Of a stretch of 64,000 bases of DNA, positions 11,679 to 18,644 are shown piece by piece; the first letter of the stretch is position 1; every line of letters starts with the position of its first letter. A program made the translations under genes and the position numbers. Source of the DNA: Escherichia coli (lineage in GTDB: Bacteria; Pseudomonadota; Gammaproteobacteria; Enterobacterales; Enterobacteriaceae); assembly GCF_048403405.1 (NCBI RefSeq), contig NZ_CP183129.1. The stretch is one strand, 5' to 3'. Under the pieces are notes generated by a model, which saw only the letters and a program-made list of their open reading frames with translations, made no database searches and had not been told where the DNA came from.

Positions 11679-12467
11679 TCATAATAATTGCGGCGGCGCA
11701 AAGCGACGGTTGTTTAAAACGGGAAGTTGCGCGCGCACCTGACGCACACGTTCGGGCGTCACTTCCGCCATAATGAGTGCAGGCATTTCTGACGCTGCCG
11801 CAATGGTGACGCCAAAGGGATCTATAATCCGGCTTTGCCCGATATTTTTGTTCCCGCACTCCCCCGCCGCCACCATATAACAGGTGGTATCCAGCGCACG
11901 AGCGGCAAGCAACGTTGACCAGTGATGCTCTTTGAGCGGCCCACGAACCCAGGCGGCAGGAAGTACCAGGATTTCAGCTCCCTGTAATGCCTGTGCCAGC
12001 GCCAGCTCTGGAAAGCGTAAGTCATAACAGGTCATCAGACCGACCTTCATCCCTTCCACCTCCAGTAACGGAGCTATTTCATTACCAGCATCAACATGGC
12101 GTGATTCCTGAATGGCAAATGCATCATAGAGATGCAGTTTGGCATAACGGGCGACGATGTTTCCTGCCTGTAGCGCCACCAGCATATTCCATGCGCGCCC
12201 CGGCGTTGAAGGAACATGAATCGTCAGAATTGTCGTCATCATGTTACGTTTACTTTCTCGCCGTAAACGTCCGAGGAATTCGCCTTCCAGCAGCTGTGCT
12301 GATTTAACCGATAGATCTGCATCATGATCATCGCGCGCCAGCAATGCTTCCGGCAGGACAAACAGCGATACGTCGTTTTCCGCCGCCTGCGCCATCAACG
12401 AGGCACAAATCTCAGCGTTCTTTTCCCACACAGATGTAACAGCAAACTGTCCTGCGGCAACCAGCAT
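11679..12467 (-). CDS. ybeM: Carbon-nitrogen hydrolase (nitrilase superfamily) protein, apparently intact
   Basis: Uninterrupted frame of about 262 codons; ATG at 12467 with GGAGGAGG upstream (ORF track starts at GTG 12473); CN-hydrolase-like sequence. Confidence 0.75.
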
Positions 12468-12562
12468 TGCCACCTCCTCCTGTCAGAGTCGTAAAATTCG
12501 CCAACGGCGATTATTCGGCGTTACACTTATCACTCATACAAATCAAATAGCAGGATTTTGCA

Positions 12563-12946
12563 GTGTTACAACTTCTTTTAGCAGTTTTTATTGGCGGTGG
12601 TACGGGAAGCGTGGCGAGATGGCTGTTAAGTATGCGATTTAACCCGCTGCATCAAGCGATTCCGTTGGGGACGCTGGCTGCAAACCTGATTGGGGCATTC
12701 ATCATAGGAATGGGATTCGCCTGGTTTAGCAGGATGACGAACATTGATCCAGTGTGGAAAGTATTAATCACCACCGGATTTTGTGGCGGTCTAACAACCT
12801 TCTCAACATTTTCGGCAGAAGTGGTGTTTTTGTTACAAGAGGGCCGCTTTGGCTGGGCGTTACTGAACGTTTTCGTCAACCTTTTGGGGTCTTTTGCCAT
12901 GACCGCACTGGCTTTCTGGCTGTTTTCCGCCTCAACCGCACACTAA
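12563..12946 (+). CDS. crcB: Fluoride channel CrcB/FluC
   Basis: 127-aa four-TM ORF, GTG start. Confidence 0.9.
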
Positions 12947-12952
12947 AGACCA

Positions 12953-12980
12953 AAAAAAACCCGCTGATTAAGCGGGTTTT
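12953..12980. terminator. Bidirectional terminator between crcB and cspE
   Basis: AAAAAAAACCCGCTGATTAAGCGGGTTTT hairpin between convergent genes. Confidence 0.8.
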
Positions 12981-12999
12981 GAATTCTTGCTGACGTATC

Positions 13000-13209
13000 T
13001 TACAGAGCGATTACGTTTGCAGCAGAAGGGCCTTTGGCACCGTTAGTGATTTCGAACTCTACGCGCTGACCTTCAGCAAGAGTTTTAAAACCATTAGTCT
13101 GGATTGCAGAGAAGTGTACGAACACGTCTTTGCTGCCGTCTTCCGGAGTAATGAAACCGAATCCTTTGGACTCATTAAACCACTTAACGTTACCTTTAAT
13201 CTTAGACAT
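13000..13209 (-). CDS. cspE: Cold-shock-domain protein CspE
   Basis: 69-aa CSD protein ([20 protein letters not shown]...); ORF-track N-terminal extension rejected. Confidence 0.95.
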
Positions 13210-13383
13210 CAAAATTACCTTTACATGAAAAATAGACACAAATGCTGTGTCGGTTACCAGTACACCAATTGTGGTACGCTTTGTCCAGTGCAACTTTACT
13301 AAAAAGTGATAAAAGTCGCGTTATTTTTGATGTTACTTATTTTAGTTATTGATTTTAAAGAAGTTACTAAAACTTCATTTGTC

Positions 13384-13944
13384 TCAAAACTGAAAGCGCA
13401 TCCAGGCAAAGTACACATTGCCATTGTTGTAGGTACCCGGAATGTAGGTCATCTGAAAAGTCACTGGGCCATAACCCACGGAGGCCAATGGCAGTAGAAC
13501 CGGGAGAGGGATGTAATTCCAGTTATCGCGTGCCGTTACGCCAGCGGTGAATCCCAGACCTAAATGAAAATTTTCATCCGCCAGCGGTCGCCAGGTACTT
13601 TCCCATCCGTATCCGGCAATCGGTTCCCATTTGTTCCACGAGTCCTTAAATGCCATGGCATACAGGCCATGCCAGTTTCCTTTTTCATCCCAACGCGACT
13701 GACCAAAACCGCCACCCCACGGTCGCTCGTTATAGCGATCGGTTTTTTCTTTGTCGTAAGCGAAACGTGCATGCCAGGTGATGGCAGGAATATATAAATC
13801 ATAATGTTCAGGCTGTTGCCAGGTTTGTGCAATATTTTCTCTAAACGTTGTCATCCACTCATCTGCGTTAGCAAAAACTTTACCAACGCTGATTAACTGA
13901 ATAAAAACAAAGGAAAAGATAGCGACATATTGACTCACGTTCAT
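13384..13944 (-). CDS. pagP: Lipid A palmitoyltransferase PagP
   Basis: 186 aa from MNVS...; outer-membrane beta-barrel acyltransferase; 8-codon ORF-track extension rejected. Confidence 0.9.
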
Positions 13945-14429
13945 TTGTGACCATAAAACATTTATCAAAAATCTACTACTAGCATAGCAAAGCTACAATT
14001 AACATAACCTTAATAGCCCCAACATGAAGAATAATCTGAATAGCTGCTCTATTTATTTCCGCTTGTTCAAGATAAATATTTCCGCGCATCGATTAAAGAT
14101 GATTCGTCGTTTTCTGCGATGGGAATAGTCAAAAAAGAAAAACCAAGTATTTTTTGATGACAAAATGCAACCAAGGAAAAATTTCTTTATTTTTTAATTG
14201 GATACAAAAATCACCTTAACGAAGAATATAATATATATCGTCAACCCATGCTCATGGCAGATTATTTTCTGAGCACGCAACCGCAGCTAACACCATTGCT
14301 ATTAACAAATTTGCATCAATCCGCCATCAATTTACACACATTATTATGTGGTAATTGCCAAACGCTAAATATGCGTTTTGTTATCTATGTATAAAAACAG
14401 CAACTTCAATGTCTTAATGGCAGTTTTTC

Positions 14430-14443
14430 TTGATTTTAATCAG
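14430..14443. promoter_or_regulatory. Candidate FNR-type site (TTGAT-N4-ATCAG) upstream of dcuC
   Basis: TTGATTTTAATCAG about 95 bp upstream of the dcuC ATG; dcuC is an anaerobic C4-dicarboxylate carrier. Confidence 0.35.
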
Positions 14444-14532
14444 CATTCACCGCCAATTTATTGGGCATATTTTTTCCTTAAGTTTTAGGAATTTTTTATT
14501 ATTTACTTTGGGGCCTGGAGACAGGAAAAATT

Positions 14533-15918
14533 ATGCTGACATTCATTGAACTCCTTATTGGGGTTGTGGTTATTGTGGGTGTAGCTCGCTACATCATTAA
14601 AGGGTATTCCGCCACTGGCGTGTTATTTGTCGGTGGCCTGTTATTGCTGATTATCAGTGCCATTATGGGGCACAAAGTGTTACCGTCCAGCCAGGCTTCA
14701 ACAGGCTACAGCGCCACGGATATCGTTGAATACGTTAAAATATTGCTAATGAGCCGCGGCGGCGACCTCGGCATGATGATTATGATGCTGTGTGGCTTTG
14801 CCGCTTACATGACCCATATCGGCGCGAATGATATGGTGGTCAAGCTGGCGTCAAAACCATTGCAGTATATTAACTCCCCTTACCTGCTGATGATTGCCGC
14901 CTATTTTGTCGCCTGTCTGATGTCTCTGGCCGTCTCTTCCGCGACCGGTCTGGGTGTTTTGCTGATGGCAACCCTGTTTCCGGTGATGGTAAACGTTGGT
15001 ATCAGCCGTGGTGCAGCTGCTGCTATTTGTGCCTCCCCGGCGGCGATTATTCTCGCACCGACTTCAGGGGATGTGGTGCTGGCGGCGCAGGCTTCCGAAA
15101 TGTCGCTGATTGACTTCGCCTTCAAAACGACGCTGCCTATCTCAATTGCTGCAATTATCGGCATGGCGATCGCCCACTTCTTCTGGCAACGTTATCTGGA
15201 TAAAAAAGAGCACATCTCTCATGAAATGTTAGATGTCAGTGAAATCACCACCACTGCTCCTGCGTTTTATGCCATTTTGCCGTTCACGCCGATCATCGGA
15301 GTGCTGATTTTTGACGGCAAATGGGGTCCGCAATTACACATCATCACTATTCTGGTGATTTGTATGCTGATTGCCTCCATTCTGGAGTTCATCCGCAGCT
15401 TTAATACCCAGAAAGTTTTCTCTGGTCTGGAAGTGGCTTATCGCGGGATGGCAGATGCGTTTGCTAACGTGGTGATGCTGCTGGTTGCCGCTGGGGTATT
15501 CGCTCAGGGGCTTAGCACCATCGGCTTTATTCAAAGTCTGATTTCTATCGCCACCTCGTTTGGTTCGGCGAGTATCATCCTGATGCTGGTATTAGTGATC
15601 CTGACAATGCTGGCGGCAGTCACGACCGGTTCAGGCAATGCGCCGTTTTATGCGTTTGTTGAGATGATCCCGAAACTGGCGCACTCTTCCGGCATTAACC
15701 CGGCGTATTTGACTATCCCAATGCTGCAGGCGTCAAACCTCGGTCGTACCCTGTCACCCGTTTCTGGCGTAGTCGTTGCGGTTGCCGGGATGGCGAAAAT
15801 CTCACCATTTGAAGTCGTAAAACGCACCTCGGTGCCGGTGCTTGTTGGTTTGGTGATTGTTATCGTTGCTACAGAGCTGATGGTGCCAGGAACGGCAGCC
15901 GCGGTCACAGGCAAGTAA
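14533..15918 (+). CDS. dcuC: Anaerobic C4-dicarboxylate transporter DcuC
   Basis: 461-aa polytopic membrane ORF. Confidence 0.9.
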   Translation: MLTFIELLIGVVVIVGVARYIIKGYSATGVLFVGGLLLLIISAIMGHKVLPSSQASTGYSATDIVEYVKILLMSRGGDLGMMIMMLCGFAAYMTHIGANDMVVKLASKPLQYINSPYLLMIAAYFVACLMSLAVSSATGLGVLLMATLFPVMVNVGISRGAAAAICASPAAIILAPTSGDVVLAAQASEMSLIDFAFKTTLPISIAAIIGMAIAHFFWQRYLDKKEHISHEMLDVSEITTTAPAFYAILPFTPIIGVLIFDGKWGPQLHIITILVICMLIASILEFIRSFNTQKVFSGLEVAYRGMADAFANVVMLLVAAGVFAQGLSTIGFIQSLISIATSFGSASIILMLVLVILTMLAAVTTGSGNAPFYAFVEMIPKLAHSSGINPAYLTIPMLQASNLGRTLSPVSGVVVAVAGMAKISPFEVVKRTSVPVLVGLVIVIVATELMVPGTAAAVTGK

Positions 15919-18266: not shown

Positions 18267-18644
18267 TGTTTTCCTTGCGGGTTGTCCCGAGCCTCTTTGA
18301 CGAATGTAATTAAAATGTTGAATCAAAATACATAGATATTAAATATAATCGTGGCAAATTTTATTCATTAAATCAATTAAATCACTTAAACCTGCGGGTC
18401 ACTTCGTAATTACATTAATTAAAAAACTTAAAACCATTAAATAAATAAAAAACCACTAACTCTATGTGAAATAAATCAAAATTTCACGCTGCAATACTCC
18501 TTAGGATGTATAGCGAAAGGAGAAAAAGATATACCTCGATCGCCCCCTTTCTCCCAAGTGAAAATAAAAGGTTATCAGTTTGCAACATCGAACAACATTT
18601 GTTGCAAATCGATAACAACATGCACCTTCAGGATACTATTTATT

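Follow-up and report, generated by a model that had tools for sequence, protein, structure and literature searches.

An AT-rich spacer as the probable joint control region of the divergent pagP and dcuC promoters in Escherichia coli

Organization and variation of the pagP–dcuC spacer

The window analyzed here is a 64,000-nucleotide stretch of Escherichia coli DNA (contig NZ_CP183129.1 of assembly GCF_048403405.1), in which pagP and dcuC are transcribed divergently from an AT-rich spacer. The features of the locus are as follows.

13384–13944, minus strand: coding sequence of pagP (crcA), lipid A palmitoyltransferase, 186 amino acids, from the open reading frame and its translation, with the ATG at 13944
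13945–14532, no strand: AT-rich divergent intergenic region between pagP and dcuC, 588 bp, 32.3% G+C
14017–14362, no strand: fast-evolving central spacer, within DNA reported to be H-NS-bound in MG1655
14533–15918, plus strand: coding sequence of dcuC, anaerobic C4-dicarboxylate transporter, 461 amino acids, with the ATG at 14533

The gene order tatE, ybeM, crcB, cspE, pagP, dcuC, dpiA, dpiB is that of MG1655 with the orientation reversed, and pagP is 99.5% identical at the DNA level to its MG1655 counterpart (b0622). The coordinates and length given for the divergent spacer in the original prediction were exact, and its AT-richness was borne out by a G+C content of 32.3% compared to 51.5% for the whole 64-kb window. 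No other 588-bp stretch of the window is more AT-rich; 0.06% of all segments of this size equal the spacer, and every one of them overlaps it. The counterpart in MG1655, at 655969–656556, is likewise 588 bp long. An even more AT-rich stretch was noted at 18300–18500, in the spacer upstream of dpiB toward the cit genes, where G+C falls to 0.24 per 200-bp window. A further difference between strains was seen at ybeM (deaminated glutathione amidase; 11679–12473, minus strand), an intact 264-amino-acid open reading frame in the window that the MG1655 annotation lists as a pseudogene and that of strain MINF_8D as frameshifted.

Used as a query, the 588-bp spacer was found in 5,381 of 5,426 complete E. 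coli genomes, with 90–95% identity over its whole length in most of them and 100% identity in strain 144. Partial matches in this survey are explained by the rearrangement in E. coli MINF_8D, a urinary isolate (NZ_LR890606.1, 3150–4250), in which IS1 lies 150 bp into the spacer and a deletion of the remaining spacer, dcuC, dpiA and dpiB has connected pagP to citC.

Variation within the spacer is concentrated at its center. Among 29 substituted positions between the window and MG1655, 27 fall in 14017–14362, two in 14363–14532 and none in 13945–14016. The divergence of the central spacer is 7.8%, compared to about 2% for dcuC and 0.5% for pagP, and beyond the genus Escherichia it yields no usable alignment. 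The central spacer, flanked by two promoter cores that are conserved, shows relaxed or diversifying evolution.

A non-coding RNA or small-protein locus in the spacer was considered and rejected, with no Rfam match, no conserved hairpin and no conserved open reading frame. An Rfam scan of 12900–14700 at a permissive threshold gave no match within 13945–14532. The only real match of the scan, the cspA thermoregulator (RF01766; 12952–13394, minus strand; 123.9 bits against a gathering score of 78), covers cspE along with its long 5′ UTR, immediately past pagP on the 3′ side. A terminator-like hairpin, AAACGCTAAATATGCGTTT at 14360–14378, has its stem broken in MG1655 (A14362C) and is absent in other Escherichia, and the short open reading frames of 34–48 amino acids are not conserved in sequence beyond the genus and were set aside as AT-rich noise.

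An FNR site upstream of dcuC

The dcuC side of the spacer contains a sequence resembling an FNR site.

14430–14443, plus strand: FNR binding site TTGATTTTAATCAG, center 14436.5, identical in MG1655 and under an FNR ChIP-seq peak there

The motif had been pointed out in the original prediction as a 9-of-10 match about 95 bp from dcuC, consistent with the anaerobic induction of the gene. The match to TTGAT-N4-ATCAA at nine of ten positions was confirmed, and the center of the site lies 96.5 bp from the dcuC ATG. Sites with at most one mismatch number seven in the 64-kb window compared to 2.6 expected, and when the AT-rich spacer itself is dinucleotide-shuffled, 8.3% of the shuffles contain at least one. 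By itself the motif is therefore only weakly improbable, and its significance comes from conservation together with published ChIP.

Published experiments, performed like those on PhoP and H-NS in K-12 or Shigella and not in the window strain, establish both FNR occupancy and FNR-dependent induction of dcuC. Table S6 of Myers et al. 2013 (PMC3688515) lists CTGATTAAAATCAA at old MG1655 coordinate 655281, under ‘dcuC/pagP’, as a predicted FNR site with a PatSer score of 12.38, and marks it as lying at an FNR ChIP-seq peak. This sequence is the reverse complement of TTGATTTTAATCAG, and the MG1655 14-mer is identical to that of the window. Locating the 14-mer in the current MG1655 record also calibrated the offset from the old numbering (+777), by which the FNR peak positions 655298 and 655340 map to about 14426 and 14384 in the window. 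The comparison with ChIP data that had been proposed for FNR thus finds a peak at the identical site. In the same study, dcuC appears in Table 1 as directly activated by FNR (wild type versus fnr deletion), with an aerobic/anaerobic expression ratio of 0.05, or about 20-fold more expression anaerobically. Together with the conservation described below, these data bear out the proposed role of FNR. Myers et al. cited Zientz et al. 1999 as earlier expression evidence for dcuC and listed no prior evidence of FNR binding; RegulonDB had flagged dcuC as FNR-regulated by 2006.

The FNR site and its flanks are identical in the window and MG1655. Neither of the two differences in 14363–14532, nor the one extra difference of a third strain, falls in the FNR site or the −10 hexamer downstream of it; the polymorphisms are confined to the spacer and the UTR. 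Identity over a 61-bp promoter core reaches 95% or more in 5,374 of the 5,426 genomes.

Conservation and predicted geometry of the dcuC promoter

The elements placed around the FNR site are the following.

14375–14429, plus strand: block upstream of the FNR site that is conserved within Escherichia, from alignment
14466–14471, plus strand: dcuC −10 hexamer CATATT, within the conserved TTnGGCAnAnT, 22 bp past the FNR site
14478–14532, plus strand: predicted dcuC 5′ UTR, with a start at about 14478 (MG1655 656023) deduced from the −10 hexamer and a Shine–Dalgarno AGGA at 14523–14526

To collect dcuC loci, a degenerate DNA pattern in the coding region was searched in contigs of one genome per species, giving 120 loci, 106 of which had enough upstream sequence. 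The pattern TTGA(T/C)-N4-(A/G)TCA(G/T) was present within 170 bp of the dcuC start codon in 100 of the 106 (more than 20 genera, about 100 species), counts that overstate the number of independent events since the species are related. The genera include Escherichia, Citrobacter, Enterobacter, Klebsiella/Raoultella, Kluyvera, Leclercia, Kosakonia, Buttiauxella, Cedecea, Serratia, Yersinia, Rahnella and Edwardsiella, so that the FNR site and the −10 hexamer are retained across Enterobacteriaceae, Yersiniaceae and Hafniaceae. Site columns that the search left free (T5, T11 and G14) are also highly conserved. Downstream, the block TTnGGCAnAnT keeps an invariant 22-bp spacing from the FNR site to the −10 hexamer and carries 1.3–2.0 bits per column in nine of its 11 columns (99 distinct sequences); the sequence between site and block varies freely. 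The −10 hexamer is CATATT in E. coli, CACATT in most genera and CAGAGT or CAAAGT in Yersiniaceae, all of which fit a −10 at A2, A4 and T6. The distance from the FNR site to the dcuC ATG ranges from about 61 to 156 bp (61.5–156.5) across loci, and pagP adjoins dcuC in some species only (spacers of 293 to about 900 bp), lying about 7 kb away in others. An earlier footprinting study had reported the conservation of the dcuC FNR site to be too low to detect.

The site was not found by the scan in six of the 106 dcuC loci; four of these, from one enterobacterium and three Photobacterium, show none. Salmonella arizonae, among the six, has GTGATTTTAATCAG with the 22-bp spacing kept. Citrobacter amalonaticus S646, also among them, lacks the FNR site and the −10 block at their usual place; about 220 bp upstream of dcuC it has instead repeat-rich, G+C-rich DNA with two copies of ...CCTTTCGGGGC/CAGC...CAAGC...GTTCAAA..., an insert that looks like a small mobile repeat.

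The last base of the FNR site (14443) is the non-consensus G in 83% of the 99 distinct sequences, T in the rest and never the consensus A. A weaker idea, drawn from the conserved G of the half-site ATCAG, is that selection has favored a sub-optimal site, which would keep FNR affinity low.

With a 14-bp site, 22 bp and then a hexamer at −12 to −7, the FNR site would be centered at −41.5. We infer from this spacing that FNR acts from a class II position on a dcuC promoter starting near 14478, whose −35 position would share bases with the right edge of the FNR site. A σ70 consensus scan of 13850–14650, which is uninformative for activator-dependent promoters, found no −35/−10 pair compared to 3.7 expected; the lack of such a pair is what would be expected of promoters in which activators replace the −35. 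In anaerobic cells, a σ70 ChIP-seq peak (old coordinate 655235) maps to about 14489, about 10 bp from the predicted start. Myers et al. 2013 noted ‘TSS not in peak region’ for dcuC, which implies that the start annotated then lay elsewhere, and a text search of the literature found no mapped dcuC start. The block upstream of the FNR site contains an ArcA-like direct repeat, TGTTATCTATGTATAA at 14379–14394, with two mismatches to TGTTA-N6-TGTTA. YeiE reportedly represses dcuC and binds downstream of its promoter.

The pagP promoter and its predicted PhoP box

On the pagP side, three elements were placed.

13999–14015, minus strand: predicted PhoP box TATTAAggttaTGTTAA, which would span −41 to −25 with its center at about −33, in the −35 position; placed by orthologous conservation
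13981–13986, minus strand: pagP −10 hexamer TATGCT, 12 bp past the PhoP box
13945–13974, minus strand: predicted pagP 5′ UTR of about 30 nt, its start (A at 13974) set 7 nt downstream of the −10 hexamer

PhoP control of pagP had been expected in the original prediction, in which no PhoP box could be placed from sequence. That failure agrees with the counts obtained here: the pagP side has no box with two mismatches or fewer, and boxes with up to three mismatches number six compared to 3.9 expected, which is not above chance. The box was instead located by comparing 45 pagP upstream regions (about 40 species), in which (C/T)GTTAAg-N4-(C/T)ATT(A/C)A, then exactly 12 bp, then TAnnnT are conserved. 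In E. coli the two halves read TATTAA and TGTTAA, with three mismatches in 12 positions to (T/G)GTTTA-N5-(T/G)GTTTA, and by sequence alone the box is indistinguishable from background. The whole segment 13945–14016, which includes the box, the hexamer and the 5′ UTR, shows zero differences between the window and MG1655. A σ70 ChIP-seq peak (old coordinate 655742) maps to about 13982, and its occupancy rises from 37 to 366 anaerobically.

The expectation of PhoP control is supported by a published crcA site and by binding and genetics in Shigella. According to Harari et al. 2010, the PhoP site of crcA (pagP) lies 32 bp from the start in E. coli and 44 bp from it in Salmonella. In Shigella, PhoP-P gel-shifts a fragment upstream of pagP, for which no box with two mismatches or fewer is listed, and deletion of phoPQ reduces pagP expression. 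For Salmonella, Zwir et al. 2012 give the footprinted pagP box as CTGTTTATAGTTTGTTAAG, 23 nt from the −10 TATTAT. From the conserved spacing, the E. coli box is put at 13999–14015 and would be centered at about −33 of a pagP promoter starting near 13974, which matches the published 32 bp.

H-NS and other regulators of the spacer

The length and AT content of the spacer had also been taken to suggest nucleoid-protein binding, and published data agree. Two H-NS ChIP-chip regions (old coordinates 654590–655558 and 655584–656283) map to about 14166–15134 and 13441–14140 and cover nearly the whole spacer, a genomic SELEX study annotates it ‘HNS’, and deletion of hns derepresses pagP 18-fold. The tables of Myers et al. 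2013 are inconsistent on the FNR site itself. Table S6 lists it without overlap with H-NS, IHF or Fis enrichment, whereas the anaerobic H-NS region 654590–655558 of Table S3 spans it (655281). Deleting both hns and stpA leaves FNR occupancy at the site as it was (0.87 versus 0.86). Since FNR occupies the site in the wild type and gains nothing in the double deletion, H-NS does not mask the dcuC promoter as it does ‘silent’ FNR sites.

Several other regulators bear on pagP. SlyA is needed for its induction in biofilms, and Chalabaev et al. report three putative SlyA sites; the SlyA consensus TTAGCAAGCTAA has no match with three mismatches or fewer in the spacer. RcsB and GadE are also required for pagP induction. 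Deletion of arcA lowers expression of dcuC 4.1-fold and of pagP 2.8-fold, with no ArcA ChIP peak. Park et al. 2013 predicted that the pagP/dcuC spacer contains an ArcA site; the ArcA 15-mer consensus has no match there with four mismatches or fewer. The repeat TGTTA-N6-TGTTA has four matches, the best of which, with one mismatch, coincides with the PhoP box at 13999–14015 on the minus strand. Under anaerobic conditions, pagP mRNA is about 3.4-fold higher and σ70 at the pagP promoter is up 10-fold.

A candidate RcsB site was found upstream of the PhoP box.

14026–14039, no strand: candidate RcsAB/RcsB-type box GAAGAATAATCTGA, center at about −58 from the predicted pagP start

The sequence GAAGAATAATCTGA has four mismatches to TAAGAATATTCCTA. 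Upstream of pagP, much better copies occupy comparable positions in Enterobacter, Kluyvera and Citrobacter (TAAGAATATTCCCA, TTAGAATATTCCTA and TCAGAATATTCCTC), and E. whittamii has a better copy as well. RcsAB-type boxes with three mismatches or fewer were present upstream of pagP in 16 of 45 loci, from related species, compared to about 5% of shuffles, and the distance between them and the PhoP box varies. No mapped RcsB site for pagP was found in the literature examined. It is possible, as a tentative proposal, that GAAGAATAATCTGA is a direct RcsB site (RcsB–GadE or RcsAB-type) for the osmolarity- and biofilm-dependent induction of pagP.

A model of the spacer and alternative explanations

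The spacer is very probably the joint control region of two divergent, activator-dependent σ70 promoters, with FNR acting on dcuC, PhoP on pagP and H-NS between them. About 400 bp of H-NS-bound AT-rich DNA would separate the two promoters. On the dcuC side, the anaerobically active FNR dimer would bind TTGATTTTAATCAG at −41.5 and, where no usable −35 is present, recruit RNA polymerase to give dcuC mRNA from near 14478. On the other side, phospho-PhoP would bind the direct repeat TATTAAggttaTGTTAA, replacing a −35 at 12 bp upstream of TATGCT, and pagP mRNA would begin near 13974. H-NS on the AT-rich DNA would hold pagP low, with SlyA and RcsB/GadE relieving the repression, as published genetics indicate. 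The FNR motif and the PhoP box are each statistically weak alone; their support comes from conservation at fixed spacing and from published experiments.

It could be argued that the FNR-like motif is a functionless chance match in AT-rich DNA and that dcuC responds to oxygen indirectly. Its frequency in spacer shuffles (8.3%) would allow this, and its PatSer score of 12.38 is close to the lowest that Myers et al. 2013 accepted. Such a coincidence is nevertheless highly improbable given the FNR ChIP-seq peak at the site and its presence in 100 of 106 loci from several families, with an invariant −10 spacing despite unalignable surroundings. A true binding site might still serve chiefly pagP, or both genes, and so couple lipid A palmitoylation to anaerobiosis, in line with the anaerobic rise in pagP mRNA (about 3.4-fold) and in σ70 occupancy (37 to 366). 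The position and distribution of the site make this role very improbable as well: some 460 bp separate it from the predicted start of pagP, and it accompanies dcuC where pagP is about 7 kb away or absent from the locus. Moreover, the table of FNR-dependent differential expression includes dcuC, and pagP did not turn up, while ArcA (the 2.8-fold decrease in the arcA deletion) and RcsB/GadE offer other routes to pagP expression.

More weight is due to the possibility that FNR binds but acts from a class I, remote or downstream position, with the true dcuC start elsewhere. The remark ‘TSS not in peak region’ is compatible with this, as are the listing of dcuB with FNR at −132.5 and the constitutive dcuC promoter predicted from genomic SELEX by Shimada et al. 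(ATGACA-17-AATTAT, about 370 bp from the ATG). The −10 of that upstream promoter, AATTAT in MG1655, is however AATTTC in the window (substitutions at 14184–14185), in a region that is not conserved. Repression would be expected from a site downstream of the start, yet the effect on dcuC is activation; in every family a conserved −10-like block follows the site at the same 22 bp; the σ70 peak is about 10 bp from the predicted start; and −41.5 ± 4 is the site position in 19 of the 23 FNR-activated promoters whose start is known. We therefore regard a different start as unlikely and favor activation of dcuC by FNR from −41.5.

Discussion

Much of the regulation at this locus is already known. Recognition of dcuC as an FNR target dates from 1999; RegulonDB listed it by 2006, and ChIP evidence followed in 2013. 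Control of pagP by PhoP, H-NS, SlyA and RcsB has been published. New here are the promoter geometry, which is deduced from conservation, the window coordinates proposed for the E. coli PhoP box, and the candidate RcsB box. The gain is a precise, testable anatomy of a promoter pair with poorly documented starts, with little significance beyond annotation.

The proposed dcuC promoter resembles the class II FNR promoters of Myers et al. 2013, of which the 19 of 23 noted above are examples: its site is a 14-bp inverted repeat under an FNR ChIP-seq peak, the −10 lies 22 bp past the site, a usable −35 is lacking, and the gene is activated anaerobically in dependence on FNR. It differs from them in its imperfect half-site, ATCAG, and in that its −41.5 position is deduced from spacing. 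The dcuC/pagP entry of that study is the same site as that of the window and differs in strain only. The dcuC promoter is also unlike the ‘silent’ FNR sites masked by H-NS, as its FNR site is occupied in the wild type.

The spacer shares with H-NS-silenced promoters that are counter-silenced by SlyA or RcsB its 32% G+C, its H-NS enrichment and the 18-fold derepression of pagP, and a further likeness is the dependence of pagP induction on SlyA and RcsB/GadE. In the categories of Zwir et al. 2012, PhoP boxes in direct orientation lie one or two helical turns (12 or about 22 nt) upstream of the −10. The E. coli pagP promoter itself resembles their PhoP promoters of architecture I/II, in which the box replaces the −35 at 12 nt from the −10; its two hexamers would lie 11 bp apart in direct orientation, and PhoP dependence and PhoP-P binding have been published. 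Unlike those promoters, it has a degenerate box. The pagP promoter of Salmonella Typhimurium (architecture IV) has the conserved TGTTAAG hexamer in common with E. coli, at the same distance from the −10. In Salmonella, TGTTAAG is the downstream half of a box centered about 43–44 bp from the start, in agreement with the published distance and 23-nt spacing, whereas in E. coli the hexamer at the corresponding position would be the upstream half of a box centered about 32–33 bp from the start. The PhoP box is thus shifted by one helical turn between the two species, as already noted by Harari et al. 2010.
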